A stretch of DNA of 63,334 nt. Source: a virus. Taxonomy: Duplodnaviria; Caudoviricetes. Shown here one piece after another: positions 3,701 to 58,928 of this stretch. How positions within the stretch are numbered: position 1 is the stretch's first letter; each line of letters begins with the position of its first letter. Position numbers and translations under genes: made by a program. The stretch covers positions 1 to 63,334 of the IMG/VR virus record IMGVR_UViG_3300020393_000006, one strand, 5' to 3'. The notes below the pieces were generated by a model. It did no database searches. It saw nothing but the letters and a program-made list of their open reading frames with translations, and was not told where the DNA came from.

Positions 3701-5692
3701 ATGGAACTTCTCATCAAAGCCTTGGTCGCGGCTCTTTGCGACCGTCGTAACCTCGCCGACTGTAGCGAGTGGCACACCCCTCTGGCGCAGTCTTTCCTGC
3801 GTTACTTCCGAACCAAGCACTCCAGCCGCACGCTGGCACGCTGGATCGAGAAGAACGTGGGTGTCTTCGCCCTGTCTCAGCGTGTCAGCGTTGAGTCAGC
3901 AACCCGTACTCTCGCCCAAATCGTGGGCGAGTGGAAGGCAGCAGGGATCATCGACACACGACACGGATCCCGTGGTACGCTTGTGTCGTGGCCCAACCAC
4001 AGCAGAGACGACTTCATTGTCTTGCCTCTGCTGGAGGAGCCAGCCTTCCACAGTGGCGACACTGGTGGAACGGGTACACGTGCCATCTGCGGTGGTCGTC
4101 CTCACAAGTATGTGAGCGACCAGCAGAAGGAAGCCCTCGATGCCATCCAAGGCGTTGCGTACAGCGTGCATCCCAAGATGCTTTGTGCTGCACTCGACGC
4201 ACTGGAGCGTGGGCTGTTCGACGACCAACCGAAACGCAGTTTCGTCTTGGAACGTCGGGCTCTCGAGTTCGCGCTTGAGAACCTTGCAGATGGTGAATCG
4301 TACTGGTTGCCGGTGTTCATGGATCACCGTGGCCGCATCTACACCGACTCAGGTGCATTGCTGTCCTATCAAGGCAGCGATGTTCACCGTGGGCTCTGCT
4401 GGTATGCAGATGCCAAGGATGTGGATGTCCTGAGTACCGCGTGGGCGGAGTTCCTCGAATCGGCACAAGCCGAGTATGGGGTCACTCCAGACAATGCAGA
4501 AAGCATTGCACAATCTGACATCACAGACGTAACTGGCAAGCAGTTTCGTCGGATGGCTTGTGCAATCGCCGTTGTCGAAGTCATGACCACTGGTCGGACT
4601 TCGTACATCTGGCAGCAAGATGCCACATGCTCTGGCATGGGCAACATTGCCTGCATCACGCGAGACCCCAAACTTGCCAAAGCAACTGCCCTTCTGGGCA
4701 AGATTGCTTCGACCGATGACCTCTACTGCCAGACCTCCTCAGAGGCTGTCAGCAACCCACGCTACTTCCGTCTCACTGAAAGCGGAAAGCGTGACGAGGT
4801 CATCTTCGACTTCAGCCCTGCGCTGGAGGATACGCAAGTTTGGAACGAGTTGGCGGCCCGCACGGCAGCCAAACACCCAGTCATGTTGTCGTCATACGGC
4901 AGCAGTGCATACAGCCTTGCTCAGTCATGGATCGTCGAATGCGGCATCCTTGATGATGACGGTAACGTCATGTCCGAGCAAGCAGCCAAGGATCTCGAGT
5001 TCGAGGACTTGCAAATGCTGGACTGGAGTGATCTCGTTGGCTCACCAACCGCGTTCACTATCTCAACTGCCAAAGCCCGCTCCATGGGAGCAACGCCTTG
5101 GGATTGGTTCCTCTGCCTTGCAACGGCGTACCAGCATGCACTCATGCATCTGTACCCCAGCATTGGAGAGTTCCAATCGCACATGAAGAAGATTGCCCGA
5201 AAGACATTTGTCAATCACGGCAGACCTTCCTTCTGGCGTTCGTCTGTCGGTATGCTTTGTGTCTATGCACCAGTCATCGCTGGTGATGAGGACACGCTGC
5301 AGTTCACCACAAGCAATGGTCGTCAGTCACTGACCCTGCCAGTCTTCAGCACTACGCCATGCGTAGATGACAAGACACAGCGGGCGAAAGACATCGACCG
5401 CTTGTCTGGACAATCGGCAATGCCGCCCAACCGCATCCACTCTGAGGATGCTTCGATCGTGGTACTCAGTGTGCTCGACGTTGCCGATGATGGCATCGTT
5501 GTGTCGCCGATCCACGACTCGTGGGGTACGCACATCTGCAATGGTATTCGGATGCGTCATGCAGTCCGCAACGCCATGATCAGTGTGCATGGCAAAGACC
5601 TGCTGTCCAAGCAGGAAAAGGATGCGGACATGTTGCCACTCCACCGTGGAGATTGGAACCTCTTGGAGATCCAAGATACCTTGATCCGGTGA
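3701..5692 (+). CDS. Compact T7-family single-subunit RNA polymerase (RNAP-1, ~663 aa)
   Basis: DHRGRIY…QGSD, motif A QDATCSG, motif B RTAAKHPVMLSSYG, PPNRIHSED, motif C IHDSWGT; AGGAGG RBS before ATG 3701. Confidence 0.92.
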   Translation: MELLIKALVAALCDRRNLADCSEWHTPLAQSFLRYFRTKHSSRTLARWIEKNVGVFALSQRVSVESATRTLAQIVGEWKAAGIIDTRHGSRGTLVSWPNHSRDDFIVLPLLEEPAFHSGDTGGTGTRAICGGRPHKYVSDQQKEALDAIQGVAYSVHPKMLCAALDALERGLFDDQPKRSFVLERRALEFALENLADGESYWLPVFMDHRGRIYTDSGALLSYQGSDVHRGLCWYADAKDVDVLSTAWAEFLESAQAEYGVTPDNAESIAQSDITDVTGKQFRRMACAIAVVEVMTTGRTSYIWQQDATCSGMGNIACITRDPKLAKATALLGKIASTDDLYCQTSSEAVSNPRYFRLTESGKRDEVIFDFSPALEDTQVWNELAARTAAKHPVMLSSYGSSAYSLAQSWIVECGILDDDGNVMSEQAAKDLEFEDLQMLDWSDLVGSPTAFTISTAKARSMGATPWDWFLCLATAYQHALMHLYPSIGEFQSHMKKIARKTFVNHGRPSFWRSSVGMLCVYAPVIAGDEDTLQFTTSNGRQSLTLPVFSTTPCVDDKTQRAKDIDRLSGQSAMPPNRIHSEDASIVVLSVLDVADDGIVVSPIHDSWGTHICNGIRMRHAVRNAMISVHGKDLLSKQEKDADMLPLHRGDWNLLEIQDTLIR

Positions 5693-5738
5693 GCAATCAC
5701 CACAGCCACAGGGCCCCGCTTCGGCGGGGCTCCTGTTT

Positions 5739-5947
5739 GAATGCCAGGCCAAGGCTTGGCATTCTTCAAAGACAAAAGGAATCGCTACGCTCATCTTCCT
5801 TTGTCCTCGCCGGACAGGCCTTTGATGCGCCTACGGCGTTCCCCAAGCAGGCGGTATGTAGCCCGCTTCGCGGTCGGGAGGATTGCCATTGGCTGCTGCA
5901 ATCTCGTTGATCCGCAGCAGAACGTGATCCTCCTTTCTGATTTGGAT
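5739..5947 (+). ncRNA. Candidate structured RNA between the last two array modules
   Basis: Stems GAATGCCAGGCC/GGCTTGGCATTC and GACAAAAGGA/TCCTTTGTC; no RBS-supported ORF. Confidence 0.35.
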
Positions 5948-5981
5948 GTCTATGGCCTAGCGGCCATAGGCTCCTTTTTTT
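5948..5981 (+). terminator. Intrinsic terminator closing the array
   Basis: GTCTATGGCC-TAGC-GGCCATAGGC hairpin followed by TCC and T7. Confidence 0.65.
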
Positions 5982-6815: not shown

Positions 6816-6816
6816 C

Positions 6817-8987: not shown

Positions 8988-9060
8988 GGTCCCGTAGCCC
9001 AACGGTAGAGGCAGAGGACTTAAAATCCTTCCAGTATGGGTTCGAATCCCATCGGGACTA
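8988..9060 (+). tRNA. tRNA-Leu(TAA), short variable loop, no encoded CCA
   Basis: Acceptor GGTCCCG/CGGGACT, anticodon arm GAGGA-CTTAAAA-TCCTT, T-arm ATGGG-TTCGAAT-CCCAT. Confidence 0.85.
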
Positions 9061-9065
9061 CTTGT

Positions 9066-11976: not shown

Positions 11977-14448
11977 ATGGACGATAAAACACTTATCGGA
12001 CTAGAAATGGTTCGTGAAGAAGATATGCTTTTGGCTGGCTTACGACGGTACTGGGGTACTGCTCAGCTTCAGGATCCTTCAGAAACAGAACTAATTTCTA
12101 GCCAGTCTGCTGACAATCTACGTACTCCAGAAGAGCTTGTGATTCGCAGATATGGTTCTTATTTTCTTCCAGCATTTAACTCGATGCAGGATCGCATTGT
12201 AAACGGCATGAAGAACCACGCACAATGGGCTACGCCTGCGTTGTTTCTTACGCCAGAACACCTGTGCCTGCTTACTTTTAAGGCTCTGTTGCCTTCAGCA
12301 TATCCCAAGAGAGATCAAGGCGTTGGTGTCATCGGTAACAGGATTAAGCTCCAAAGCGCTGCTGAAAGTTTGGCTACTCAAACTTGGCAGCTCTTGCATT
12401 ACCTGCGTGCCAAAGAAGAATACCAAGAAATCTGGGAGTTCAGAACCAAACTAATTAAGAACTGGACACCGCAAAAACAAAAGAGATTTGTTAAAGAAGT
12501 TCTTGGCATGGCTGAGCTTTCAAAGAAAGAACGGCTAGCTTTTGGTGTGGCTATGATTCAGTGCGTTATTGATGCTGTTACTGATGAGCAGATAGAAGCC
12601 GGAGAGTACTATGCGAAGCGTCTTCTTATACGAGAAGGGGCTAACAGGACTACAACATACATTGAAGTAAATCCCACGCTAGTTCAAGAAATGTTGGACG
12701 ACCATAACTTTCGTCAATGGTTGAGACCTAAGTGGGGCCCAATGGTTTGTGAGCCTAACCCATGGATAAAGGATGAAAACAATCAATGGGTAGGCGGATA
12801 CTTGTTACCGGGAATGCAAATGAAATTTGTACGTCCTGCTACACCCGGCCATGATAACTATGGTAAAACAGAACCGGGAGATAAAGCAGTCCTTGCTATT
12901 AACAGGCTGCAGTCTACTCCGTATGCAGTAAATACGCAAGTCTTAGACATTATGCGTATGACTTTTCATTCTAACCTTGAGCTAGGAGAATGTCCTAAAT
13001 CTTCACAAAATGAATGGAGTTTCCCTGAGTACGACGGCGAACCAAAAAATGCCGATGGTACTTACAAAGATGATTTCAAACTACATCTAAAGAAATTAAG
13101 AGAATCTCATGAGGAGTGGGCAAAGGCATGGGCAGATCGTCTGCGCATGATTCAACGCTTAGATCTTGCAAGAGATATTTCAAAGTATCCTGCTTTCTGG
13201 TTGCCAATTACTATGGACTTCCGTGGTCGTTGTTATACTTCTACAGAAATGCTAAGTCCACAAGGCTCAGACTTTGATAAGGCTTTGTGTTGTTTTGGTA
13301 AGGCAAAACCATACACCGACAAAGCTCGATACTGGATGAAGGTACAGATTGCAAACTTGTTTGGACAAGATAAACTTTCATATGCCAATCGTATTGCTTG
13401 GTTTGAAGAAAACGAATCAGCTATACGAGATATTGCTAAGGATCCTATTAAGAATACTTGGTGGTCTGATGACGGCGATGATAAAAAGAAGTGGCAGCTT
13501 CTTGCTTCAATCCTAGATTACTATCGAGACGACGGAAAAAACCAAGTGGCCGTTCAAATGGATGGCTCTTGTAATGGCATTCAGCACTGGTCAGCTATTG
13601 GTAGAGACGAGATTGGAGCTGCTGCTACAAACTTGGTTTGGTCTGAACAACCTAATGATTTGTATCATGAAGTTGCAACAAAGGCTAACGAGCTGCTGTC
13701 TTATCCAAGAGACAATGAATGGCATAGTATTTGGCAGGACGTTTCTGTTAGCAGGAAATGCGCTAAACGTCCATGCATGACATACCCTTATGGTGTAACA
13801 GTTCGAGGCTGTATTGATGCTTTAAAGGCAGATGGACATTGTGATTGGGCAGGAGATAAAAAACTTGCTGCTGCTCAATATATTGGCAACTTGTTAATGA
13901 ATGAAGCAATACCAGCTGTTATTTCTGCATCTTATAAATATATGGCATGGGCAAAAGAAATTGCTAAACAAGCTAATGAAGCTAATACTTATGTTGAATG
14001 GACTACTCCTCTTGGAACTGTTGTTAAACATAATTATTACAAAGAAGAACGATTTCGTTTAAATGTAGATAATCAAAGAATTGTATTCGAAATTCCAAGT
14101 AAAGAAGATGCAAAACTATCTACTACAGAAATGGTAAGCGGAATTGCACCTAACTTCATACACTCATTAGATGCTACACATATGCTGGCTACTATTAATG
14201 CTATGTGGCATGATGATCTTAAATATTTTAGTATGATTCATGATTCATATGGTTGTCATGCTTGTGATGTAGAAGCAATGCAAAAACATATACGACAAAC
14301 TTTTTATTGGATGTATTCTTTTTACAATCCAGCAACAGAAGTTGCAGAAACTATGGCAGAAAAAACAGGACTAGATGCAATCTATCCACCAGAAAGCGGC
14401 GAATACGACTTGAAAGAAGTACTTATAGCTCCTTACTTTTTTGCTTAA
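11977..14448 (+). CDS. Full-length T7-like DNA-directed RNA polymerase (RNAP-2)
   Basis: PMVCEPNPW…GGY, DFRGRCY, PQGSD, motif A DGSCNGIQH, motif B RKCAKRPCMTYPYG, APNFIHSLDA, motif C IHDSYG, C-terminal YFFA. Confidence 0.97.
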   Translation: MDDKTLIGLEMVREEDMLLAGLRRYWGTAQLQDPSETELISSQSADNLRTPEELVIRRYGSYFLPAFNSMQDRIVNGMKNHAQWATPALFLTPEHLCLLTFKALLPSAYPKRDQGVGVIGNRIKLQSAAESLATQTWQLLHYLRAKEEYQEIWEFRTKLIKNWTPQKQKRFVKEVLGMAELSKKERLAFGVAMIQCVIDAVTDEQIEAGEYYAKRLLIREGANRTTTYIEVNPTLVQEMLDDHNFRQWLRPKWGPMVCEPNPWIKDENNQWVGGYLLPGMQMKFVRPATPGHDNYGKTEPGDKAVLAINRLQSTPYAVNTQVLDIMRMTFHSNLELGECPKSSQNEWSFPEYDGEPKNADGTYKDDFKLHLKKLRESHEEWAKAWADRLRMIQRLDLARDISKYPAFWLPITMDFRGRCYTSTEMLSPQGSDFDKALCCFGKAKPYTDKARYWMKVQIANLFGQDKLSYANRIAWFEENESAIRDIAKDPIKNTWWSDDGDDKKKWQLLASILDYYRDDGKNQVAVQMDGSCNGIQHWSAIGRDEIGAAATNLVWSEQPNDLYHEVATKANELLSYPRDNEWHSIWQDVSVSRKCAKRPCMTYPYGVTVRGCIDALKADGHCDWAGDKKLAAAQYIGNLLMNEAIPAVISASYKYMAWAKEIAKQANEANTYVEWTTPLGTVVKHNYYKEERFRLNVDNQRIVFEIPSKEDAKLSTTEMVSGIAPNFIHSLDATHMLATINAMWHDDLKYFSMIHDSYGCHACDVEAMQKHIRQTFYWMYSFYNPATEVAETMAEKTGLDAIYPPESGEYDLKEVLIAPYFFA

Positions 14449-49100: not shown

Positions 49101-52100
49101 AGTCTTGGTACTAAGACAGAAGATATTGGCACTGCAACTTACGATTCACTAGCTGCTGTCTTTGCTGATACTAAGACTCTAAAGGACATTGATCTTGAAA
49201 ACGTCTTTGGAGAAGCCATCGTTGAAGGCACTACGCCTGCTACGATGCGATTCGACATGGATAAAGCTCGTCAGGTAATTCGTCAGCGTATTGATGCTGC
49301 TGAACCAATTCAGCGAAATCCTGATGCTCTTCTTACTCCTCAACAGCTCCGACTCCGTCAGGCGTCTGAGATTGCTGACTGGAGAGCATCTAACGCTGCA
49401 CGTAGGGCTGCTGATTCTGAGTCCGGCTTTGCTGGAGCTGCAGATGCCCAAGCGTGGGAAGACGGTTTCTGGTCCTCCTTGATGCTTCGTCTAAAAGAGA
49501 CAGGCAATAATAAAAATGCTGCATATCTTCGTAGCCCTCAGGCGCTTAAAGATTACATCAACAGTCAGTTTATTCCCTACATGCGAGGCGAGCTGATTGA
49601 TCTGGGCAACGGTAAGTCTGACTTTGTTACACCAAAAATGGCAGCATTTGCTATTGCAGATATTGTTCACGGTAAGTCAGATGGCCGTACCCGATATAAA
49701 ACTACTATTAATGAACTTAACGAAGAGACAGGAGTTACTACACAAAAAACTACTGACTCTGAGTTTATTGAACGCATATCCCATGCTCAGCCCGGAACTG
49801 ATCGAGAGATTGCTCGAGTCTTGGCTAAGCTAGAGTACGATGCTCGTATGGAAGCAATTGTTCGCCTTGATTTTGATAGCCCCGGCCAGCCCTCGCTGGA
49901 TCAAGCTATTAAGTTTATTAAGGATGGAAATCTGCAGCAGGATAATAATCGAGCTCTTAACCGTGAGGAGTTTGCTACTAGAGCTTTTTGGATTCCTCCT
50001 GCCCTTCGTACAAATCTTGACCGCATAGATGAAGATATTGATGCACGTATTGAACGAGTAACTAATGAATTGCTTGAAGAAGACTTTACGGCTTATGATA
50101 TTCTTCACGACGACTTTAAGACCCGTCAGGGGGATTGGGGTGTTGCGGTTGAAGATGCCAATGGTATATTCTTTAAAAACCATGGCGTTGCTGGTGGATT
50201 CCCTGTTGCTTCTGCTATGCCAAATCCTGAGGAAGGATACTCCTTTGGTATGGCTGTTCTTGATGCTCATATGCTCTTGCACCCACAAACGTGGATGGAT
50301 ACTATCTCTGCTCAGAAGCGGGGACAAATGTTACGTGATGAGATTACTGCATTAGAAGCAAAGGATAAACTGTCAGATGCTGAGGCTAAGCGCCTACAAG
50401 TTTTGAAGTCAGGCTCCTATGTTACTTCTATTGATGGTAGTCAAAACGGTGTGCGCCATGCGCATGCTATGGCCATGCTTGAAGGCGAGCAAGCTTTTGA
50501 GACTCTTGCTGAGTTTGTTGCTAAAGGAACTGGCAAAAAACGTGACTTTTATCAAGACCTTCGTACAACTACTCTTAAATTTTTCCAAGAAACTGATGAT
50601 CCCCGTGCCAAGATTTGGTTGAATCTTGGTTTGGTCCAAGACGCAGTCAAGGGCCGTAAGTTTGCTAAAAAACCTGTTATGGTTTTGCCCTATGGCGCAG
50701 GCAAAAAAGCTATTACCAACTCTATTCGAGATAGCCTAAAAGAATTACCTGCTGAAAAACTTCGTGAATTTGATGCTGAAGCAGATCGAATCGGCGCTAG
50801 TCGAGAAGAGCTTATTAACTATCTTGGAACAGAATGGTTTGGTAAACAACAAGAAAAGAAAGCTGGGCTTATCCAGAAGGCTCTTGACCTTCCTGATGCA
50901 GATGCTCAAATGAAAGTCATTATGGCTGATTCTTCAAAAACTGACCCGTATCGCCAGCTTGCTGACGAACCGGATCGTTCGGTTGCTTTGAAGGGTATGC
51001 TTGATGAAGCACAAAAGCTTTCTGAAAATACTGGAATGGATCTTGAAGAAGCATTTTATGCTGTACAAATTCAAACTCGAGCTTTAGCAATTACTCGAGC
51101 AGATGATATTCCTCTTGAAGCTGCAGCTCAAATGGCGCGTCGTCAATTTGCTCGTGAAATGAACTTGATGCATGAGGCTAAAAAGTCAGGAGATTATTCA
51201 AAGGTTATTGCAGCCGGTGAAGCTGGTGAAATGGGCTTTGTAGAAAACTCCCTTCGGGCAATGATGCGTTCTGAATATGTTCAGTCTGAGTCTGCTCAGG
51301 CTCGGGCTACCATGGATCAAACTGGTCAGGCTGGTGCTCGTATTCAACTTCCAGAAGAAGCTGAAGGCTCGTTCTTTGCTCAGCAGCTTATGGACTGGCG
51401 TAGCCGTATGGTTACTCCAAGAAACCAAGAGTTCTTTGCTAAGGGTCGTAAGTCTGAGCGGGCAGTAATGGATATTCTGCAAGTTCTAGAAGAAGGCGAA
51501 TCTGTTGTATACAAAACTTCTAAAGCTGAAGCTGAAGCTGATTTGCATCGAGTAGATGACGATTCTTTAACTTCTGACGAATGGTTTGCTAAACATATTG
51601 ATGAAGAAAAAACAATTGCTTCTGGAGTCTTTGGTCTTCGTGATGTAGAGCTAAGAGATCGTCCTCGTGGAAAATCTAAACGTCGCGTTCTTGAAGAAAA
51701 AGCTATGAGCCTTAAAGGTAAAGAGCTTGAAGCTGAACTGAAGCGTCTTAATATTAAAAACTATTCACGAATGAAAGCCGTTGAAAAACGTGCAGCTGTT
51801 CGTGATGCTTTAATTGAAGCTGAAAAGCTAAGAATTAAAAAGCTTGTAGTTAAGTCTGCTATGGCTGAAGCTGCTCCAGAGTTTGCTCCTCCTGTTCGTC
51901 TTGATGAAGCAGGTAATGTAGCTCAAATGAGTCGCTTAACTGAAGCTGAAAAAATGGATCGATGGGAAGCTCACTCTGAAGATATTCGTAACTCAAATTC
52001 TCGTGCTAGCGAAATCTATAGTAGATTAGATAAAGACGGGAAGAAAGCATACGAAAAAAACTATGGTCGACCAATGGAATCGCTTGTCGGTCCTAATGGA

Positions 52101-55100
52101 GAGCCTATGGTTCAAGAAAAGGTTATTACTTCTGAAGCCTTTGCAAAACTTGAAGATGCGGGTGAAGTTAGTCCTCAAGCTTCTCAAACTATGGGTGGTG
52201 CTTTAGGTACAAGACCTATTCATCCTACTGAAGCTACTGACATGATGCTTGGTGTTCCTGCTGTACGTGAGCTTGCTCAAAATCGCAGCATGGGACAGCA
52301 GGGTATTACTACTAAAACAAAAGATGGTAAAATCCAAAAAACAACCAAGCGTATTGAAATTGATGGAGAAGCTTCTGGACTTCAAGCAGTACGCCGAATT
52401 CAAGATGGAGGAGATATTGTTTCTCGAGCTGAGCGTCATCGTGTTACACATACAGATGAAACTCAGCTACCTATTATTGATAAATCAGAAGAAATGTTTG
52501 ATCCTGAGTTACTTGGACGAATGCCTGATGAAACTCGAGATTTAATGATTCAAACTACCCTTACCCGTCATGCTACTAAGTTTGGTCTTAGTGATCTTGT
52601 CGAGGCAGAAGAGTGGGGCGAAATATATGCTCACCTTGTGTGGCGTAAAAATATGGAAGCTTACGGTAAAGATCTTAAAAAGCTGCAAACTATGGCGCAG
52701 CGTAAAAATGAATCTTCCGAAGCTTATATGAAACGTCGCCAAGAAGCAGAAATGAAACTTTTTGCTAAGTGGGAACAAACTACACGAGAAACTCGAGAAG
52801 GATTTGAAAAAGCGGCTAATGATGAGTGGGATTCTCATAAGATTGATCCGTTTAAGAAAATCCAAACTGTAGATGCTCGTGATGCTGAGGGTAAACCTCT
52901 TACTCGTCGTGAAGCTATTCTTAGATCTGCTAAGTTGCGATCTGATGGTAGCTTACGCTCTGATGTAAGCGCAGCTCAACGTACTAATATTGATTTAATC
53001 GCTGGTGAATCTATTGATGGTGTTCGTCATGCTGGTTCAGAAATGCCTGCTCCAATTGAAATGTCTTCAATGTCTACAGTTGGCGGTCTTTTACCTATGG
53101 CAGGTCGAAGTGATAATAAAATTTATGCTTCTAATGGTGAAGATCTTGGATCTCAAGGCTTTGCTCGTTCTCGTAAGGCTAATGGCCAAGCAGGAGAGTA
53201 CGTAGCATTTGACGATCTTTCAGATAATGCAATTCTTAAAGTTCACTTTGTTCACTCAAAAGACCGAGCAGGAGCTACTGGTTCTGTCGGAATGAGAGAA
53301 GATATTTCTCTGCTTGCAGGCTTAACTACCTCTAATGGTAAAACTATGACTGTTGCAGAAGCTCGGGATTTATTGGCAAATGCTGGATCAGAATCTGGTG
53401 AAGGTTCTATTATTGCTGGCTCTAAAGGTAATGTACGTTTCTTTACAACAGATGGTATTGAAGTAATTGATGGTATTTTTGCTGGTCATAATATTCGTCG
53501 TAATGGTACTCGTAATGAACATTATTGGATTCTTCAAAACTCTGCAAACCGATTCTTAGGAGATCGCTTATCTGTTTCTGCCCTTACACAGCGTCCCGTT
53601 CGTAGGCATAAGTCTACTTGGGAATTAATGGATGATCGAGTTCGTAGGAAAACTGCAGGCACTCGCATTGCTAATGAAAATAAAGTTATGCTTGATTGGC
53701 TAAAGGAAAAAGATCCTAAGGCTATTAAGACCTCTTCATTCCTTGGTAATGTGATGGACTTAGGACAATACTGGGCTCGTCCCGAGTTTCGTGATAGGTT
53801 GTATATGTCTGAATATGATCGTACTCTTGCAGATGCTAAACAACGTTTAGGCATTGAAGCTACTGAAATTACTAATAATGTTCATAGCGAAACAATTACT
53901 AATCTTCGTAATTATATGTTAGATGTGCCTGAAGGAAAATTAGTTAGTGAGGCTACTATTAGATCTTTAGCTAATGAAAGCACTAGAACTCGACGTACTG
54001 ATTCTGATATTACAGGCGAACCTTCTCGAACTCTTGTTAGAACAGGAAACAATCGTAAAGATGTTGTAACAGATAATTGGATTACTAAGACTACTCCTGC
54101 TGAATTAGTTAAGGGTAAAAAACAGTTTTCTGCTGATCAAGTAAATGATCTTATTGCAGATCTTGAGGCTGATCAAGATTCATTTAATCCATCTATTAAA
54201 GATCCAATTGAAGCTCGAGAGGGTGATGAAGGATTCCTTGGTAGTCGGATTACTCCTAATGAGATTAAGTTTGCTAAGCAGATCGCAGGATTGCAGATGC
54301 TGTCGGGCAATGATCTTATGGTTATTGATGCCGATTACATTGCTCGCATGGCTCCAGCAACTATGGAAGGTATTAAAGCTTCTTCTGGTATGCGTGTTGA
54401 AAATATTGTGGTTTTAGCCAATGAAGGCATTGCCCACATGCGTAAGATGCGTAAGCTTGTCAGCTTGGCAAACCAAGATGGAGTTACTGGTCATGGTATG
54501 ACTGGTCTTATTTTGCGTTTAGCTTCTGATGGCGAGATTGATCTCGATAATGTTACTGATGCAACCTACGCTAGGATTAACCGAGCATGGCATGACCATG
54601 AAGTCGGCGGCGCTGATCGAGGTGCAGATAATCTTAATAGTCCTGAAGTTATTTCACATTACCAACATCAAATTAATAATGCTAAGAAGATCCTTGCCTC
54701 TGAAGATAAGGATCCGTTTAGCGACACTACTACTCGCACCTTCCAAGGTGACTTCGTAGACCAAGCAGGCCAGAAGCGTTCTCCTGAATACTTTATGGAA
54801 GCAGACAACTATAGTCGCCTCTCTGGAGAGCATGCTAGGTTCAATGACTTCTTAGAGGATTTGTTGGCTTCGGAAACCTTGGACTTGCCTCAAGTTCGTA
54901 TGCTTCGTGCTACGACTGCTCAAATGGATGGTCGTATCTTTGCTGGCCTAAAGCTTGAAGAGCTGACTGATGCTGACTTCCGCGCTCAAGCAAAAGAGCT
55001 AGGTCTTGGGTCTGCTAAGAAGGCACGTGCTCGTGCGTTGTCTTACAGTAAGGGAAGCTTTGGCTTGTCTCTACTCAAAGGACGCATAGGTCGAGATATC

Positions 55101-58100
55101 GATGCCGTAGATGTTATTCTTCACGAAGTCGGACACGTGTCTATTAACCGAATGCTTGCAGAAAACTCTCCTGAGCTTGAGGTTGCGCGTAACATGGCTA
55201 AGTCTGCTGAAGGTGAAGCTGCTCTCCGTGAAATGGTTAAAGTCATGCATGGTGGTAAGTTTACTCAAGAAGCTGCTAGACAGTTTAAATATTTTAAAAA
55301 AGATCCTGATGAGTTTTTAGCAGCATGGTTCTCTTATACTATGATGTCTCGAACTCTGGATGATAAGGCTACTATTGTTGCTGCCTATCGAGCTCATAAA
55401 GGCTGGGGCACTGCAATTGCTAATATTGTGCGTAAGATGGCATCATATGCTTATCGGCGTATGTCTGGATTCTCTAGAGCCCTTTCAGGCTTGGAGCCCA
55501 GCTACGGTCGTAAAATGAACGAGATCATGGACCACCTTGCTGGTCGTACTGATGTTGCTCCAATGGATAAGCCTAATAACTTTGCTGCTTTTCACGCAGA
55601 AGCTGATGGACGAGCTGCAAATGTTAAAGCAGCAGAAGCTGAAGTCGAAGCTCTTAGAGCTGCAGGTGTTGAAGAAAATGAGCCTCTTATGATAAATGCT
55701 TTAAAAGATCTTCAAACTGCAATTGATGAAGCGTTAGATACTTCAGATCCCGCCCACTTTGGTGGAGATGGATTTGGTGGTCGTACTCTTCGAGACTTCC
55801 TTGCTGAAAAAGTTGAAGAACGATTTACCGAAGATGGTATTATAAACTTTGGACGCATGGTTAAAGAAGACCCAACTGCTGCTGAACAATTTCTTGCTGT
55901 TCATCTTTTACCTAAATTGCAAGAAGGTCGTTATGCGAATGTAGAAGGCGTAACTCGATCAATGGTAGAAGACTCAAGAATGACTACTAGCGAAAAAGTT
56001 AGTTTACGTACTCGAATGGATAATATCATTTTATCTCCTTCAAATGCTTCACATACAGTTAATTCTAGAGTTCAGCTTCAAATTGGAGATACTAGATTTT
56101 CTCTTATGCAGCTTATATCAGAACTTGTAGATAACCATTCAGTGCTTACACAAGCTCGTTTAAATGGAAATCAATTTAGTACTCTTACTGCTCAAGCTCG
56201 AGCTTTAGAATCAAATATAGTTCGTCCTATGGCTATGCTAGATGATGAACTACGTATGGCTTTGGCTAAAAGCACTAATAATCTCCGTGGTAAATCACGA
56301 ACATTAGCTACTGCAGGAAATGAAGATTTTCAGATGCAGTTAGCAAGTCTTCGTGAAATAGCCGGTAAACGTAATCTTCCTAGAGGAACTAAGCTACGAA
56401 AAACAGCTGATGCAGAGTTTGAAAAACTTGATCCACAAGTTAAAGAAGTTGTTGATAAAATGACTAAACAATTTGCTAAAGCTTCGGGCGAAGTTAAATC
56501 TGCTGCTCGATTGGCTAATCTTATTGGACAACGACGTGCTGAAGCTTCTGGTCTTGTGCCTATTCGTTTACGTGCAGAACATATGACTGATAAATCTAAA
56601 GTTGGAGGATTTGGTCCTGAACTGACTAAACGATATGAATCTAGTATGCTTAAGTCTAAAGACTTAGATATGGATACATTAATTGGTGTTGGTTTACTTC
56701 CTTCTCCCGGTAAAGTTATTGATGAACAGGACTTATATACATATCTTAAAAATGCAGAAAAGAATGGATTTGTAGATAAAGACGCTCTTGAAATATTTGC
56801 TTCTTCTCCACGATTCCGCGAAACTGTTCAAGCTATTCGAAAAGGCGGATTTGCAGAAATTCCTGCTATGGATGAAATTCTTACAATTAAGGGACGAAAT
56901 CTCTATATGCGTGGTATTTCTGAAGGCACAGATGCTTTTACTTCTGATGGAGGTAAACACATAACTGCACGTTTTACAGAAGAAGTAGTTAAATCTGGAT
57001 CTGCTGCTGGTAAAGTATATTATCAAACTAATAGCTCTGGCGCTCAACTTCGTGCTCTTGGCCTTGGTCGTCGTGCTGGCTCTACCTCTTATTATTTTGG
57101 TGGAGATGCTTATATGGATGTAGATACACTTTTTGATGAACTTGGAGAATTTTTTGATTACGATGTGCGTACAGGTTCGGCAGCATTACAGCGCGGTATT
57201 GGAATGCAATCTGCTGATGCAGCTAATATGAGCCGTGCCTTTGAAGCAATTGGTATGAAAGTTCGCGGATTATCTGTTAAGTCTATTCTTGATCTTTTAG
57301 ATGATATGGCTTTACGTCGTGGTAATCATGCAGCTAATGATACAATGAAACACGGTGTAGATCATCTTCGTAAAGCGTATGAACGTTTAGGTGGTGGATT
57401 ACCTACTTATGAGCGAACTGGCAATATTGTTGCCGATGGTTTAGCTCGTAATGCAACTAATGTTGCAATGCTTAAATATGGTGGTAATCTTGGTGTAGCT
57501 ATGCTTGCTGAAACCGCAGTAACAACTATGGTTGATATTGCTCCTCGTATGCTTATTACTCCAGTAAAAACAATGACAATGGTTTGGAGATCTATGACTG
57601 AAAGTATGTCTCCAATTCGTAAAACTCAAGTAGCAAGACAGCTTCTTTATGGAATGCATATTGCTCGAGATACTGTTTCTATGCGTTCATTTGATAGAAA
57701 TGTAGATGACCTTGCAGTAGCTGATCCTAATACAGGCTGGCTTACTAATACATTACGTACTGGTGCTGGTCTTACCTCTAAGTTTTCTCTTGCCCCAACT
57801 GTGCAGACTTTTAACAAAGCTTTTGCTGCTTCGGGTGCAATGGATGATTTGCTTACCCACCTAGATTCTGCTGTGCGTATGCGCGAGCTGTTAGATGAAG
57901 CAGGCGGAGTTAAGAATAAAAAGGAATTCCAAGAGCTGGCTAAAAAAGCAGGCTTTGGGCGGAACTGGACTCTGGCTTTGCGTATGCAGGATGCAGGACT
58001 TCTTGATCCGTCAACAATCTCTCAGATTCGTGAGTTTGCTAATTCATCTGATGCTATGACTACTCGTATTCTTGATATTGATTCATGGTCAGATGAAGCA

Positions 58101-58928
58101 GCTAAATCTGCTGCTTCTCGTAGTTCTAAAGCTACTGAAATGGATACTGCAATTCGTGGTGTTCGCTACTTTATAGAAGAAGCAATTGCTAAGAATAACG
58201 TTGAACCTCGTGTTCTTGATATGAAGCTTACAAATAATACTGGTTGGTCTAAACTTATGGATGTTTTCTTATCATGGCCTCGTGCTTTTTATGCACAAAA
58301 ATCTGTTGTTCGTCCCGGCTCTGCATTTGCTGGAGGCGCTGGACATATTGCAGCTTTTTATGCAGCTCAGGCTACATGGGATGCCATGTATACCACGATC
58401 CAAGATTTGGCTCGAGGTGAAGATGAAGATAAAATCTTAAATGAAGTTACTAATGATCCAGCAGGTTGGTATATGTCGAAAGCTGCACGTATGCCTTTAT
58501 TTGGAATTTACTCTCAAGGTCTTGAAATGCTTGTAGATATAGGTCGTAATAAAGCTGCTAACTTAGGTGCTCCTATTGGATATCATACACGAGGTCAAGG
58601 AGATATTGACCTTGGATCAGCTCCAGTAATTGCAGCTATGAATAACTTTGCTACAACTATGATGGATGCTACAGAAGTTCTTTACGGAACAACTATTGGT
58701 AAAACTAATTCTCTTAGCACTAAAGATCCTCAAACTATGAATGCTTTTAATGGTATTTTAGATATGATTCCTTTAGCTAATATGCTTCCTGCTAAAGTTA
58801 TGCGAGATTTATGGCAAGAAAAACCTAATAGCATGAATGCTGCTCGTGGTCAAGCATATTACGAAATGCTGCAAATGAAACGTCAACACGCTTATTGGCG
58901 TAAGCAACTTATAAATAAATACAGATAA
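46191..58928 (+). CDS. 4245-aa multidomain internal virion protein with a T7/N4-family RNAP domain and a zincin motif (putative virion RNAP, RNAP-3)
   Basis: Motif A-like SIDGSQNGVRH (D~1415), RDFYQ, motif B RKFAKKPVMVLPYGAG (R~1489), HEVGH (~2978) with downstream EFLA; gp16-like position. Confidence 0.8.
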   Translation: MIMSDKDNLFSVLGNLRSADETLDTLRRKREITDNILENNSKLQEQDLSGQYWYDAEQGAFKDDATDTDYADAVEAEWDLGAADTPRGLTGAYNRKRFLDRSQSMLSLARTIRGIDNNATLDALAKSAKYDYSESGWAQMGRGAVGAINIFQDMTADTKQFKEQVKAEIGAGVPQDLELHFTPEKFVKAVRETRATALAMDEYGITAESLKGVSNYADAVEALSTQLWMRGREQRASQQVLSKSESTLKFAANLGNMILQDPDMAAEIGLEVGSTIAVGVISAGTAIPAFLAARIARRGASLTKQGLSITKIQRKLERGESITRGWEAVARAAETAHMYKPGLSTGGNIFEAVARSGKLGTRASQTSAFIAGQMVDGFIGGAGARYRSNVFTNAEAVGLYGDYADLVPETDRLMLDGGMGMVFSTFLGLGFRFGGRKFLNQFRENKPQLGFDDFAQQKLDAARTEKEQLRALYGTDDVSGVKAYQAARAMNNDATLQISLATNKDLGPEQLPDFTKLIGNLNQGIPSIEFNFALGRVIDNLKGRTISEESLALRVLEDPGFIRALEGNERLTPEALQNKIKYQRAHLARLTGERDVDPDIDKKINEGKSREEAIAELRAERLEEIKQKQAELEEREAIKAAEAEAEAIRKAKAEEQRLKEEADKAAEDVVKAKAEAEAARKAAEEQEAELEAKAKESPEEEIDSGQLQTVKAKAEEAETKVTEADKQLAAITQKQEEFDFDAALKKQQERQRADRAVVDREREALSQREEDIRLGRKGGAGGLDDTALVHVDYQKTLELEQKKQKLERAERYLGESEALQPDNAWIRRNIDPEWDREGPEVVSRAEVKKIIEARKQKLEEEAKEVTDQDLANQEILDNEGVRADAELFLEGQKVQTQALHNAFLAAGRGDFTGDPARFRSVRVRTDDQAEIDTLAAREDAKKRNAKYSREDDLDSLREAEVGLAALQRQPSLGTKTEDIGTATYDSLAAVFADTKTLKDIDLENVFGEAIVEGTTPATMRFDMDKARQVIRQRIDAAEPIQRNPDALLTPQQLRLRQASEIADWRASNAARRAADSESGFAGAADAQAWEDGFWSSLMLRLKETGNNKNAAYLRSPQALKDYINSQFIPYMRGELIDLGNGKSDFVTPKMAAFAIADIVHGKSDGRTRYKTTINELNEETGVTTQKTTDSEFIERISHAQPGTDREIARVLAKLEYDARMEAIVRLDFDSPGQPSLDQAIKFIKDGNLQQDNNRALNREEFATRAFWIPPALRTNLDRIDEDIDARIERVTNELLEEDFTAYDILHDDFKTRQGDWGVAVEDANGIFFKNHGVAGGFPVASAMPNPEEGYSFGMAVLDAHMLLHPQTWMDTISAQKRGQMLRDEITALEAKDKLSDAEAKRLQVLKSGSYVTSIDGSQNGVRHAHAMAMLEGEQAFETLAEFVAKGTGKKRDFYQDLRTTTLKFFQETDDPRAKIWLNLGLVQDAVKGRKFAKKPVMVLPYGAGKKAITNSIRDSLKELPAEKLREFDAEADRIGASREELINYLGTEWFGKQQEKKAGLIQKALDLPDADAQMKVIMADSSKTDPYRQLADEPDRSVALKGMLDEAQKLSENTGMDLEEAFYAVQIQTRALAITRADDIPLEAAAQMARRQFAREMNLMHEAKKSGDYSKVIAAGEAGEMGFVENSLRAMMRSEYVQSESAQARATMDQTGQAGARIQLPEEAEGSFFAQQLMDWRSRMVTPRNQEFFAKGRKSERAVMDILQVLEEGESVVYKTSKAEAEADLHRVDDDSLTSDEWFAKHIDEEKTIASGVFGLRDVELRDRPRGKSKRRVLEEKAMSLKGKELEAELKRLNIKNYSRMKAVEKRAAVRDALIEAEKLRIKKLVVKSAMAEAAPEFAPPVRLDEAGNVAQMSRLTEAEKMDRWEAHSEDIRNSNSRASEIYSRLDKDGKKAYEKNYGRPMESLVGPNGEPMVQEKVITSEAFAKLEDAGEVSPQASQTMGGALGTRPIHPTEATDMMLGVPAVRELAQNRSMGQQGITTKTKDGKIQKTTKRIEIDGEASGLQAVRRIQDGGDIVSRAERHRVTHTDETQLPIIDKSEEMFDPELLGRMPDETRDLMIQTTLTRHATKFGLSDLVEAEEWGEIYAHLVWRKNMEAYGKDLKKLQTMAQRKNESSEAYMKRRQEAEMKLFAKWEQTTRETREGFEKAANDEWDSHKIDPFKKIQTVDARDAEGKPLTRREAILRSAKLRSDGSLRSDVSAAQRTNIDLIAGESIDGVRHAGSEMPAPIEMSSMSTVGGLLPMAGRSDNKIYASNGEDLGSQGFARSRKANGQAGEYVAFDDLSDNAILKVHFVHSKDRAGATGSVGMREDISLLAGLTTSNGKTMTVAEARDLLANAGSESGEGSIIAGSKGNVRFFTTDGIEVIDGIFAGHNIRRNGTRNEHYWILQNSANRFLGDRLSVSALTQRPVRRHKSTWELMDDRVRRKTAGTRIANENKVMLDWLKEKDPKAIKTSSFLGNVMDLGQYWARPEFRDRLYMSEYDRTLADAKQRLGIEATEITNNVHSETITNLRNYMLDVPEGKLVSEATIRSLANESTRTRRTDSDITGEPSRTLVRTGNNRKDVVTDNWITKTTPAELVKGKKQFSADQVNDLIADLEADQDSFNPSIKDPIEAREGDEGFLGSRITPNEIKFAKQIAGLQMLSGNDLMVIDADYIARMAPATMEGIKASSGMRVENIVVLANEGIAHMRKMRKLVSLANQDGVTGHGMTGLILRLASDGEIDLDNVTDATYARINRAWHDHEVGGADRGADNLNSPEVISHYQHQINNAKKILASEDKDPFSDTTTRTFQGDFVDQAGQKRSPEYFMEADNYSRLSGEHARFNDFLEDLLASETLDLPQVRMLRATTAQMDGRIFAGLKLEELTDADFRAQAKELGLGSAKKARARALSYSKGSFGLSLLKGRIGRDIDAVDVILHEVGHVSINRMLAENSPELEVARNMAKSAEGEAALREMVKVMHGGKFTQEAARQFKYFKKDPDEFLAAWFSYTMMSRTLDDKATIVAAYRAHKGWGTAIANIVRKMASYAYRRMSGFSRALSGLEPSYGRKMNEIMDHLAGRTDVAPMDKPNNFAAFHAEADGRAANVKAAEAEVEALRAAGVEENEPLMINALKDLQTAIDEALDTSDPAHFGGDGFGGRTLRDFLAEKVEERFTEDGIINFGRMVKEDPTAAEQFLAVHLLPKLQEGRYANVEGVTRSMVEDSRMTTSEKVSLRTRMDNIILSPSNASHTVNSRVQLQIGDTRFSLMQLISELVDNHSVLTQARLNGNQFSTLTAQARALESNIVRPMAMLDDELRMALAKSTNNLRGKSRTLATAGNEDFQMQLASLREIAGKRNLPRGTKLRKTADAEFEKLDPQVKEVVDKMTKQFAKASGEVKSAARLANLIGQRRAEASGLVPIRLRAEHMTDKSKVGGFGPELTKRYESSMLKSKDLDMDTLIGVGLLPSPGKVIDEQDLYTYLKNAEKNGFVDKDALEIFASSPRFRETVQAIRKGGFAEIPAMDEILTIKGRNLYMRGISEGTDAFTSDGGKHITARFTEEVVKSGSAAGKVYYQTNSSGAQLRALGLGRRAGSTSYYFGGDAYMDVDTLFDELGEFFDYDVRTGSAALQRGIGMQSADAANMSRAFEAIGMKVRGLSVKSILDLLDDMALRRGNHAANDTMKHGVDHLRKAYERLGGGLPTYERTGNIVADGLARNATNVAMLKYGGNLGVAMLAETAVTTMVDIAPRMLITPVKTMTMVWRSMTESMSPIRKTQVARQLLYGMHIARDTVSMRSFDRNVDDLAVADPNTGWLTNTLRTGAGLTSKFSLAPTVQTFNKAFAASGAMDDLLTHLDSAVRMRELLDEAGGVKNKKEFQELAKKAGFGRNWTLALRMQDAGLLDPSTISQIREFANSSDAMTTRILDIDSWSDEAAKSAASRSSKATEMDTAIRGVRYFIEEAIAKNNVEPRVLDMKLTNNTGWSKLMDVFLSWPRAFYAQKSVVRPGSAFAGGAGHIAAFYAAQATWDAMYTTIQDLARGEDEDKILNEVTNDPAGWYMSKAARMPLFGIYSQGLEMLVDIGRNKAANLGAPIGYHTRGQGDIDLGSAPVIAAMNNFATTMMDATEVLYGTTIGKTNSLSTKDPQTMNAFNGILDMIPLANMLPAKVMRDLWQEKPNSMNAARGQAYYEMLQMKRQHAYWRKQLINKYR

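Follow-up and report, generated by a model that had tools for sequence, protein, structure and literature searches.

Three separate genes derived from single-subunit RNA polymerases of the T7 type (ssRNAPs) are present in the window (the whole stretch of DNA analyzed here, 63,334 nucleotides), conserved and in the same order in a second lineage: a compact enzyme (RNAP-1), a full-length T7-like enzyme (RNAP-2), and a giant protein of virion-like composition with an ssRNAP-derived core. Covarying hairpins form an array in the early region. On balance, we consider it probable that this phage combines a T7-like backbone with an N4-style injected polymerase and that two more phage polymerases follow it, a relay that we infer from the gene order and the N4 precedent. 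The original prediction had placed three highly divergent RNAP genes in this DNA; the Pfam and PHROG matches of RNAP-1 and RNAP-2 and motifs A and B of the giant bear this out, and RNAP-1 and RNAP-2 share 27% identity over 222 aa. The features are, with coordinates in the window:

3701..5692, + strand: RNAP-1, a compact ssRNAP of 663 aa (PF00940, 81.2 bits; phrog_414, E 1.9e-45)
8988..9061, + strand: tRNA-Leu(TAA) (ARAGORN), in the middle region, RNAP-1/RNAP-2 interval
11977..14448, + strand: RNAP-2, a full-length T7-like ssRNAP of 823 aa (PF00940, 272.8 bits; phrog_414, 574.7 bits)
41698..45842, + strand: two Cys-free proteins (212 aa and 1169 aa) directly 5′ of the giant, candidate internal-virion or ejection proteins
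46191..58928, + strand: the giant, 4245 aa, a candidate virion RNA polymerase (by size, core motifs, and 0 Cys)
50058..51470, + strand: RNAP-derived core of the giant, with HDDF (H1306 D1307), motif A, motif B, and DWRSR (D1735–R1739)
53244..53264, + strand: FVHSKDR segment of the giant (H2355 and D2358 invariant in a 10-row alignment)

The window is best read as the whole genome (~63 kb) of a marine podovirus, uncultured, whose backbone is T7-like (Autographiviridae-like). By PHROG matches, a T7-type portal, scaffold, capsid, tail tubular A and B, terminase, gp2.5-like SSB, primase-helicase, and Pol I are present and, together with a phage RNAP, they make up a backbone like that of the Autographiviridae (T7 supergroup). 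The TerL is 36–39% identical to those of the 12 listed isolates, T7-like podoviruses throughout, and the MCP is 26–29% identical. Since the termini of the record share TATCAT and the leader at the 3′ terminus runs on into ORF 5–193, the record is circularly permuted or broken within a repeat. We found no Pfam match for 10 neighboring or unfamiliar proteins.

RNAP-1 lies in ORF 3644–5692, with its true start, judged from relatives, at the ATG at 3701. It is a T7-like ssRNAP by its match to PF00940 (81.2 bits, E 9e-23, for a cut-off of 22 bits). The 7 aligned relatives (27–71% identity) all keep D227, R229, and R231 of T/DxxGR, D326 of motif A, K410, Y418, and G419 of motif B, and H624 and D625 of motif C. 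The N-terminal domain is shorter than usual by about 200 aa, and T/DxxGR is at residue 227, versus 425 in RNAP-2. Hairpin units flank the gene directly, at 3620–3648 on the 5′ side and at 5713–5741 on the 3′ side. RNAP-2 is enclosed in ORF 11944–14448, with replication genes just 3′ of it. Its 272.8 bits to PF00940 and its catalytic motifs make it a T7-like ssRNAP as well, with D425/R427/R429, D540, R604/K608/Y616/G617, and H766/D767 invariant in 12/12 relatives. Its N-terminal domain matches PF14700 at 23.6 bits, below the cut-off of 30.1; among the 19 relatives at E ≤1e-60, that domain is precomputed for 10. The best isolate match of RNAP-2 is gp29 of Alteromonas phage H4/4 (30% identity, E 6e-85).

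The giant has a single hydrophobic segment (aa 272–296), an Ala/Glu/Lys-rich stretch (~aa 500–1000), the RNAP-derived core (~aa 1290–1760), and then a long C-terminal part in which an HExxH (aa 2978–2982) is invariant. It belongs to a small family, with 10 clusters at 90% identity and 14 representatives at 50% identity. Motif A reads D1415 G Q N G and motif B R1489-x3-K1493-x7-Y1501 G1502. Residues D1415, R1489, K1493, and Y1501 are invariant in 14/14 aligned rows, with relatives of 27–60% identity, and G1502 is invariant in the 10-row giant alignment; the motif B spacing, R-x3-K-x7-YG, is identical in the giant and RNAP-2. With hhalign, the motif A–B stretch aligns to the RNAP-2 family at a probability of 95.5–97.0% (E 9e-11 to 1.6e-8). 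A tblastn search with 1200 aa of the giant against 50,697 phage records returns ordinary ssRNAP genes only, at query aa 208–353, and the core matches the ssRNAPs of Alteromonas phages R8W and H4/4 at E 9e-9 and 7e-8, respectively. With phmmer, proteins of ~800 aa align to the giant where ssRNAPs have motifs A–B. The predicted fingers (aa 1451–1567) superpose on T7 RNAP (3e2e_A) with Z 11.1 and an rmsd of 1.8 Å over 94 aa, and on human mtRNAP with Z 9.6; the next matches are at ≤5.9. Among the ESM Atlas neighbors, 19/30 are RNA_pol clusters and one is an N4 vRNAP cluster (0.90), a lead only.

The check with the Pfam RNA_pol model put forward in the original prediction holds for RNAP-1 and RNAP-2 and is borderline for the giant, which scores 16.7 bits as a protein (hmmscan), below the 22-bit cut-off, and 22.3 bits in a six-frame search of the record (at 50427–50771). 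Two relatives of the giant reach 36.6 bits (a distant one) and 16.9 bits, and the Pfam alignment in the giant spans only ~100 of the 448 model positions. Against the PDB, phmmer with the giant yields nothing at E ≤1, and a profile of 10 giants yields only one low-complexity match (E 0.13). Two AlphaFold2 models are poor (aa 1190–2389 with 14 rows, pLDDT 55.7, pTM 0.33; aa 1200–1820 with 20 rows, pLDDT 59.8, pTM 0.29); in both, pLDDT is <50 around motif A, HDDF, and DWRSR and in the palm regions. Foldseek with the aa 1190–2389 model (pLDDT 55.7) retrieves nothing from the PDB at E ≤0.001. The ssRNAP homology of the giant is secure for motifs A and B and the fingers only.

On either side of these motifs, HDDF, which precedes motif A by 108 aa, finds its best match in motif C of RNAP-2 (hhalign P 1.5e-4 to 4e-3, probability 8–51%), and DWRSR (234 aa past Y1501) aligns best to T/DxxGR (P 3e-3 for RNAP-2 and 1.7e-3 for RNAP-1). 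The HD of HDDF and the DWRSR residues are invariant within the giant family, and DWR.R is found in 12/12 members checked. With a motif C-like HDDF preceding motif A and a T/DxxGR-like DWRSR following motif B, the core is rearranged or mis-read: The spacing of both elements matches the canonical motif positions, whereas their sequence and conservation match the swapped order. A C-A-B motif permutation is known in birnavirus RNA-dependent polymerases. We do not take a permuted order as established in the giant, since the canonical order fits the spacing equally and the hhalign probabilities are low. Further on, FVHSKDR resembles NFIHSLD and NRIHSED, which precede motif C in RNAP-2 and RNAP-1, respectively, with weak hhalign values (P 0.075 versus RNAP-2 737–751; P 0.023 versus RNAP-1 575–611).

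In sequence and place, the giant has the traits of a virion or ejected protein. It stands at the end of the structural module, after the two Cys-free proteins, and contains 0 Cys in 4245 aa, as do 13/13 relatives counted (P 6e-27 at the background Cys frequency of the window); RNAP-1 and RNAP-2 contain 14 Cys each. The scaffold, the capsid, tail tubular A, and both proteins 5′ of the giant are likewise devoid of Cys. Those two proteins, of 212 and 1169 aa, have no PHROG or Pfam match and are candidate internal-virion or ejection proteins solely by position; the same arrangement with the giant occurs in G004 and G003, the two other records found with three RNAPs. The giant itself matches 0 PHROG families, and its C-terminal 796 aa have no tblastn match in the 50,697 phage records.

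The early region and the elements at the opposite end of the record comprise:

63106..63126, + strand: AAAATGGGGTCGTGTATTCAA, a conserved non-coding element of 21 nt where the GC-rich early region sharply begins
63199..63334, + strand: first early unit, a hairpin (63199–63231) with a CCTTTTCGAT tail, a second hairpin, ACCTGCTTTTATCGAT, and the leader AAAGGATCACTATCAT
1..5980, + strand: GC-rich early region (56–58% GC versus ~40% elsewhere) with the hairpin-plus-leader array
203–238, 553–589, 844–880, 1181–1216, 1324–1362, and 1978–2013, + strand: array units
2240–2275, 2580–2600 (variant), 3020–3055, 3620–3648, and 5713–5741, + strand: array units
5948–5980, + strand: additional related hairpin

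The array consists of twelve hairpin-plus-leader units, all on the + strand, each before a small ORF or RNAP-1. A unit contains a large hairpin, an invariant tail (CTCC, a T-rich stretch, and TGAT), a small leader hairpin, and the RBS; in the first early unit, the leader AAAGGATCACTATCAT crosses the record terminus into the ATG at base 5 of the window. The array seen in the original prediction is real: GGGCTCC..TTGAT is invariant in 11/11 aligned copies, and 94.1% of the cells are paired versus 86.2 ± 1.9 in shuffles (0/500 reach it), with compensatory changes at 5 pairs. The stems have 10–13 bp. In the large hairpin, a U·G pair is kept in 7/8 copies, because of which a strict search for perfect stems misses most of the array. 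Proper pairing of the large hairpin is confined to the + strand or to RNA, which suits a terminator or an RNA element more than it does a template-strand hairpin of the N4 type. The copies satisfy the generic intrinsic-terminator pattern, and 38 terminator-like sites occur in 1–12,000 where 9.8 ± 3.5 are expected. With a sigma-70-like consensus, which may not be that of the host, the same scan gives 5 sites (8.9 ± 3.2 expected), with none on the coding (+) strand of 1–5700. There is none in 63,020–63,334 either.

The element AAAATGGGGTCGTGTATTCAA occurs once in the window and in none of 100 shuffles. Across IMG/VR, its exact pattern is found elsewhere only in G004 and G003, and its position relative to the first early hairpin is the same in all three genomes. 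It is a candidate genome-end signal or first early signal. The hairpin-tail motif and the 21-nt element are kept between lineages with only ~31–35% protein identity. Two classes of cis element had been proposed; the large hairpin with its conserved tail and the small covarying leader hairpin are there, and a separate class of middle or late promoters was not found. No consensus for such promoters emerges from a reading of the intergenic regions, from exact 9- and 10-mer counts over 6,000–63,100, or from blastn-short comparison of these regions across the three genomes; only coding repeats and the early elements turn up.

The co-occurrence of the three RNAPs with the array elements, suggested for a survey of IMG/VR, recurs in G004 (60,954 bp, CheckV 100%) and G003, with all three genes in the same order and at 31–35% protein identity. 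In G004, tRNA-Leu(TAA) and tRNA-Arg(TCT) are immediately 5′ of the RNAP-2 gene. IMG/VR scans with the single protein of RNAP-1 or RNAP-2 retrieve nothing, and the relatives were found with alignment queries. Scans of genome contigs give no match. A metagenome scan with the RNAP-2 alignment, whose patterns are too generic, gives 80 loci with one close relative (L007, 70% identity, 3.8 kb). An RNAP-2 homolog (P0024) and a giant homolog (P0010) appear to share one contig, judged only from their equal longest contig of 58,789 bp, which is absent from these 80 loci.

The GC content raises the question of a chimera, which the original prediction had named as a refuter: The record might join a GC-rich phage (the early module and RNAP-1) and an AT-rich phage (the rest). 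GC3 is indeed uneven (RNAP-1, 64%; RNAP-2, 31%; giant, 22%), the 21-nt element shared exactly with other lineages lies right at the left GC border, and the record begins and finishes within a repeated leader. Against this, contigs of 63,447 and 63,090 bp carry variants of all three genes at ≥90% identity; those of RNAP-1 and RNAP-2 are found on contigs of 64,500 and 64,533 bp as well, and those of the giant also on a contig of 62,926 bp. These near-identical variants on several assemblies of ~63–64.5 kb, together with the gene order of the second lineage, largely refute a chimera, which we find hardly credible and reject.

In N4 (Schitoviridae), the order is the virion RNAP gp50, then RNAPII (gp15/gp16), then the host RNAP. 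N4 injects its own polymerase but depends on the host for the late stage of transcription; T7 works the other way round, with the host first and the phage later. The giant shares with gp50 a size of ~3500–5000 aa, an ssRNAP core in the middle third between long N- and C-terminal parts (here ~aa 1300–1750 of 4245), and the absence of Cys; PMC13492108 gives a Pol domain at 1008–2104 of 3500 with an NTD and a CTD on either side, and PMC3821669 reports an N4 vRNAP free of Cys. In both phages, early genes at one genome end have hairpin-containing signals ahead of them, and a second, small ssRNAP (~660–670 aa) serves (in N4) or would serve (here) the next stage. The N4 P2 promoter, as derived from an oligonucleotide given in PMC13492108, has on the coding strand a hairpin, TTTT, and a start G, in the same layout as the array hairpin, its T-rich tail, and the invariant TGA. 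The backbone here is T7-like, RNAP-1 is one polypeptide whereas N4 RNAPII is two, a third, full-length T7-like RNAP is present where N4 relies on the host enzyme, and there are twelve array units versus three early promoters, with longer hairpins (stems of 10–13 bp) and a conserved U·G pair. Outside generic ssRNAP motifs, the giant has no detectable sequence similarity to gp50: tblastn finds none, Schitoviridae records are 0 among 10 tblastn matches, and vRNAP Pfam families give nothing at E ≤0.1. In these comparisons, the N4-type vRNAP shows up only as structural rows of Z 5.5–5.9 and the language-model neighbor at 0.90.

Autographiviridae with two ssRNAPs exist (PMC5658483). Alteromonas phage vB_AspP-H4/4 (Foturvirus, Autographiviridae) likewise has a T7-like head–tail module and two ssRNAP genes, gp3 at the left end and gp29 further on. 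The latter, the best isolate match of RNAP-2 (30%), is also among the best of the A–B segment of the giant (E 7e-8). The tblastn matches of the giant core in H4/4 are to gp29 only, with no giant carrying a polymerase region seen; gp3 is only 26% identical to RNAP-1, the genome is 47.6 kb versus ~63 kb, and the hairpin repeat is absent from the annotation of the record, the annotation alone being compared. The giant also resembles T7 gp16 (IVP-D) and polyvalent ejected proteins in its place behind two Cys-free proteins where the structural module ends. According to Hardies et al. (PMC4819975), IVP-D homologs host cargo domains, the N4 vRNAP included. Since its C-terminal 796 aa match no isolate and it has no PHROG or Pfam match, the giant would belong to IVP-D by position and composition only. 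We found no isolate or paper with the present combination of three ssRNAPs, in keeping with the original prediction, whose author knew of no described phage of this kind; the literature covered, which excludes subscription journals, gave N4-type systems (where the third polymerase is the host's) or unrelated work.

In the relay that we favor, the Cys-free internal-virion giant with its ssRNAP-derived core is probably packaged and ejected along with the DNA, and it would most likely transcribe the GC-rich early region, where the twelve units stand ahead of the early ORFs including RNAP-1. RNAP-1, the compact enzyme, would come next and, probably aided by helper proteins, express the middle genes, RNAP-2 among them; RNAP-2 would express the replication and structural genes. 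With two phage RNAPs and a giant with an embedded polymerase core, transcription of the whole genome without the host enzyme is possible. A more far-reaching version, in which the whole programme does run on the three phage ssRNAPs without the host enzyme and the injected polymerase has a permuted palm, which would be the first in an ssRNAP, we consider unlikely. An alternative to the relay is a scheme of two polymerases, as in H4/4. In it, the giant is an ejection or internal-virion protein with a non-catalytic ssRNAP relic that binds DNA or NTPs or has no role, the host RNAP reads the early genes, and the hairpins are intrinsic terminators or RNA-stabilizing elements. This scheme, for which Autographiviridae with two ssRNAPs provide a precedent (PMC5658483), accommodates the confinement of secure homology to the A–B segment, the low pLDDT of the palm regions with their non-canonical motif order, and hairpins that match a terminator pattern and keep U·G pairs. 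It does not lead one to expect that D1415, R1489, K1493, and Y1501, which bind NTP and metal, stay invariant down to 27% identity in a relic; the invariant TGAT past the T-run, kept between lineages, is unneeded in a terminator; and a terminator behind each early ORF would still demand a promoter before each ORF. Nor does a sigma-70-like site (with a consensus that may not be the host's) appear on the early region's coding strand. We regard it as somewhat unlikely.

The roles of three active polymerases might also be divided otherwise than in a relay. T7 RNAP aids DNA entry and primes replication; RNAP-1 could, for example, serve genome entry or make replication primers, or the gene sets of RNAP-1 and RNAP-2 could overlap. 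The ~200 aa that RNAP-1 lacks are of the N-terminal promoter-binding domain, and neither a distinct middle nor a distinct late promoter consensus was found, both of which suit such a division. The order of early units, RNAP-1, small genes, RNAP-2, and replication genes is nevertheless kept in two lineages, as the relay predicts, and we take this alternative to be quite improbable.

On the favored reading, the relay, this lineage appears to join the N4 and T7 solutions in a single small genome of T7-like build, every stage having a phage polymerase available to it. If true, it would be a minimal self-contained transcription system, immune to defenses and inhibitors directed at the host RNAP, and it would provide up to three new orthogonal polymerase–signal pairs for synthetic biology (with the compact enzyme of 663 aa, the T7-like enzyme, and the hairpin-associated enzyme). 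The lack of detectable similarity between the giant and gp50 fits the idea that an ssRNAP core was inserted independently into an ejected virion protein, which bears on the origin of virion polymerases. Given its odd motif order, the structure of the giant would be informative on how far the palm of an ssRNAP can be rearranged.

Three separate, highly divergent genes related to T7-type single-subunit RNA polymerases (ssRNAPs) are present in the window, where the original prediction had placed them. Pfam and PHROG matches identify RNAP-1 and RNAP-2; hhalign, tblastn and invariant residues identify the polymerase-related part of the giant protein.

3701–5692, + strand: RNAP-1, 663 aa, with its start at 3701 set by comparison with relatives
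8988–9061: tRNA-Leu(TAA), in the middle region
11977–14448, + strand: RNAP-2, 823 aa, a full-length T7-like enzyme
46191–58928, + strand: the giant, 4245 aa

The window, an entire IMG/VR virus record (63,334 bp; CheckV completeness 100%), has sizeable ORFs on the + strand only. By PHROG matches, the replication module is T7-like (gp2.5-like SSB, primase-helicase, Pol I-type DNA polymerase, exonuclease and ribonucleotide reductase), as is the head–tail module (portal or head-tail adaptor, scaffold, major head protein, two tail tubular proteins, a tail-fibre-like protein and the large terminase). The large terminase is 36–39% identical to those of the 12 isolates listed, all T7-like podoviruses, and the capsid protein only 26–29% identical to isolates, by which the phage belongs to a deep-branching, uncultured lineage within the T7 supergroup. 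The large terminase (region 39947–46190) precedes the candidate internal-virion genes and the giant, an order found identically in G004, an IMG/VR record that also has all three genes. In T7, the large terminase stands last in the late operon. The tRNA-Leu(TAA) is in keeping with late genes that use AT-rich codons; in G004, tRNA-Leu(TAA) and tRNA-Arg(TCT) occur directly upstream of RNAP-2 (locus L118, 4884–5036). At the right end, a 74-nt direct repeat (61157–61230 and 61528–61601, 82% identity) bridges the borders between small Lys-rich ORFs, whose products are small, basic and probably paralogous.

On Pfam RNA_pol, the expectation of three polymerases is borne out for RNAP-1 (81.2 bits) and RNAP-2 (272.8 bits); the sole Pfam signal of the giant as a protein (16.7 bits, aa 1414–1525) is below the cut-off. 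RNAP-1 also matches phrog_414 (E 1.9e-45), and its T/DxxGR, motif A Asp, motif B Lys/Tyr/Gly and motif C His-Asp are invariant across 7 relatives (27–71% identity). The T/DxxGR is at residue 227 in RNAP-1 versus 425 in RNAP-2, which leaves the N-terminal domain of RNAP-1 some 200 aa short of the usual length. The cores of the two enzymes are only ∼27% identical. The closest isolate match of RNAP-2 is gp29 of Alteromonas phage H4/4 (30% identity); RNAP-1 is 26% identical to gp3, the early polymerase of that phage.

Despite the sub-cut-off score, the homology of the giant's segment aa 1414–1525 to ssRNAPs is secure, because several searches and the invariant residues agree. The segment scores 22.3 bits in a six-frame Pfam search of the record, and for a distant relative the score is as high as 36.6 bits. 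With phmmer against 1.84 billion representatives, the 14 matches comprise the giant's own small family and three ∼800-aa proteins (E 6e-5 to 1e-3), which align where ssRNAPs carry motifs A–B. With tblastn of the polymerase region against 50,697 phage records, the matches, in 10 records, are to bona fide ssRNAP genes only (best E 9e-9), all confined to aa 208–353 of the 1200-aa query. The A–B columns of the giant family align with the RNAP-2 family in hhalign at a probability of 95.5–97.0%. Down to 27% identity, none of the residues D1415, R1489, K1493 and Y1501 varies in any of the 14 aligned rows; G1502 is likewise fixed in a 10-row alignment. The two AlphaFold models of the core are poor overall; the confidently folded part, aa 1451–1567, contains motif B and, as modelled, superposes on the fingers of T7 RNAP (Z 11.1, rmsd 1.8 Å, 94 residues) and on human mitochondrial RNAP (Z 9.6). 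Further matches among 48,161 chains have Z ≤5.9, the N4 mini-vRNAP (5.9) among them. In two protein-database relatives of the giant, P0005 and P0013, a PF07498 domain (precomputed Pfam) is inserted around motif A; it is absent from the window's giant.

Around this segment, the order of the motifs looks unusual.

108 aa before motif A: IHDDFGT (family consensus, with an invariant His-Asp), resembling motif C of RNAP-2 (IHDSYG) and RNAP-1 (IHDSWG)
234 aa after Y1501: MDWRSR, resembling T/DxxGR of RNAP-2 (MDFRGR) and RNAP-1 (MDHRGR)
giant aa 2352–2358: FVHSKD, resembling the NFIHSLD that precedes motif C (hhalign weak, P 0.023–0.075)

The top hhalign match of the IHDDFGT segment is motif C of RNAP-2 (P 1.5e-4 to 4e-3), and that of the MDWRSR segment is T/DxxGR of the RNAP-2 and RNAP-1 families (P 3e-3 and 1.7e-3). 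In MDWRSR, the D, the W and both R are invariant or nearly so, with DWR.R in 12 of 12 members. In RNAP-2, 115 aa separate T/DxxGR from motif A, and 151 aa the motif B Tyr from the motif C Asp. By position, the HDDF and DWRSR sites occupy the canonical T/DxxGR and motif C places; by sequence and conservation, they look swapped. The core may be either canonical with unusual motifs or a rearranged palm. In both cases, two invariant Asp candidates are present beside motif A, compatible with a predicted catalytic activity.

The giant has several features of a virion protein. It adjoins, downstream, two proteins of 212 and 1169 aa without family assignment at the end of the structural block. It contains no Cys, nor do 13 of the 13 relatives counted (2,869–4,995 aa); RNAP-1 and RNAP-2 each contain 14, and in replication proteins Cys makes up 1.5–3.7%. 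Were Cys as frequent as in the rest of the window's genes, a 4245-aa protein would have none with a probability of 6e-27. The scaffold, the capsid, tail tubular A and the upstream 212-aa and 1169-aa proteins are likewise Cys-free. There is a single hydrophobic segment (aa 272–296). In the C-terminal half, an HExxH (LHEVGH; aa 2978–2982, window 55122–55136) has H2978, E2979, G2981 and H2982 nearly invariant (at least 90%, 10-row alignment); the region has no Pfam or PHROG match and could be a candidate metallopeptidase-like module.

In the available text of PMC3821669, the N4 vRNAP is without cysteine, which is linked to passage through the tail and periplasm, and that of PMC13492108 gives its plan as NTD 1–919, Pol 1008–2104 and CTD 2123–3500. 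The giant shares this domain plan as well as the absence of Cys. Homologues of internal virion protein D are described, in the portion available, as hosting cargo domains, the N4 polymerase included (Hardies et al., PMC4819975). The giant matches no PHROG family, and neither PHROG nor tblastn against the 50,697 phage records shows sequence similarity to gp50 or gp16-type proteins; the arrangement accordingly has the look of a separate fusion event, or of a fusion whose similarity has been lost by divergence. The family is rare: 10 clusters at 90% identity among 5.8 billion, 2 further loci in IMG/VR, and none in contig scans of 185,579 species genomes.

An IMG/VR scan with the RNAP-1 alignment gave 17 loci, with two full-length relatives (35% identity) in G004 (60,954 bp, 123-bp end repeat, CheckV 100%) and G003 (a 38,215-bp fragment). 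The three genes co-occur there with the hairpin-tail motif of the early region: both records have an RNAP-2-type gene, a giant (more than 4,294 aa and 5,003 aa; 31–32% identity to the window's polymerase region) and a small number of motif copies, at least 2 per genome. The gene order is identical in the three: large Cys-free protein, ∼100-aa ORF, giant, ∼4 kb, early small genes, RNAP-1, small genes with tRNA, RNAP-2, replication, structure and terminase. Since G003 and G004 share 93–98% nucleotide identity in places, they are counted as one further lineage.

The composition of the window prompted the reading, already raised in the original prediction, of a chimera of two phages. A GC-rich early module (63,110–63,334 and 1 to ∼6,050) has 56–58% GC and sharp borders; GC3 is 64% in RNAP-1 versus 31% in RNAP-2 and 22% in the giant. 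Against a chimera, each of the three genes has, in the window's own species, variants (at least 90% identity) on contigs of up to 63,447 and 63,090 bp, and RNAP-1 and RNAP-2 additionally on contigs of 64,500 and 64,533 bp; the synteny with G004 and G003 contradicts it also. The module is foreign in composition, and by the lengths of these contigs the GC jump is genuine. The homologous module of G004 is not GC-rich (RNAP-1 GC3 25%). The jump may stem from the exchange of a module or from selection connected with DNA entry or hairpin extrusion. TATCAT is common to both record ends and a conserved early-gene leader (63,314–63,334) continues directly into the ATG at base 5, so the record is either circularly permuted or broken inside a repeat.

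Twelve array units, all on the + strand, run from ∼63,110 across the record end to ∼5,980, before the early ORFs and RNAP-1. Each is composed, in order, of:

a GC-rich hairpin with a 10–13 bp stem
an invariant tail, GGGCTCC-(T-rich)-TGAT
a small hairpin (4–7 bp) with an ATGG-type loop
an AAAGGA ribosome-binding site, then ATG

In eight aligned copies, 94.1% of cells pair, versus 86.2 ± 1.9 in shuffles (0 of 500 reach 94.1%) and 39–57% with slid partners, and five pairs show compensatory changes. A U·G pair of the large hairpin is kept in 7 of the 8 copies, so that the hairpin forms best on the + strand or in RNA. In the available text of PMC13492108, a hairpin on the coding strand of the N4 P2 promoter (an oligonucleotide) is followed by four T and the initiating G; the units have a like layout, with hairpin, T-rich tail and invariant TGA. 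Sigma-70-like sites are not enriched in 1–12,000 (5 versus 8.9 ± 3.2 expected), and none occurs on the + strand of 1–5,700 or in 63,020–63,334. The array copies also match a generic terminator pattern (38 sites in 1–12,000 versus 9.8 ± 3.5 expected). We read the units as sites where a phage polymerase, most likely the injected one, starts transcription; the chances that they act as promoters, with or without a further role, are about even, and a role as terminators only is rather improbable. Within the promoter reading, the large hairpin may double as the terminator, or RNA end, of the gene before it.

A 21-nt non-coding element (63106–63126) lies exactly where the GC-rich region begins. In IMG/VR outside the window, it occurs in G004 and G003 only (locus L122, 8249–8269, − strand; locus L123, 8082–8102, + strand), identical save one Y position across three genomes with only ∼31–35% protein identity; it may mark a genome end, a packaging site or the first promoter. 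Runs of C/G (CCCCCC/GGGG; partly palindromic, e.g., GGGTCCCCCC) are present at both borders of the early region (5980–6100 and 63,130–63,200) and recur likewise placed in G004 (reverse strand, ∼6,040–6,110) and G003. Directly after RNAP-1, between two hairpins, a possible short minus-strand ORF (∼33 codons, 5790–5950) has an early-leader-like AAAGGAGGATCAC upstream and no clear start codon.

The original prediction named no described phage with this combination; likewise, our literature searches gave no phage with three ssRNAP-type genes, and tblastn found no relative of the giant among the 50,697 isolate records. Phage H4/4 has two ssRNAP genes (PMC5658483). N4-like phages use three polymerases and, in the available text of PMC3821669 and PMC13492108, the third is that of the host, whereas here the third is phage-encoded. 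The phage would thus combine an N4-like injected-polymerase strategy, with packaging and activity of the giant predicted, with a T7-like backbone and a third polymerase of its own.
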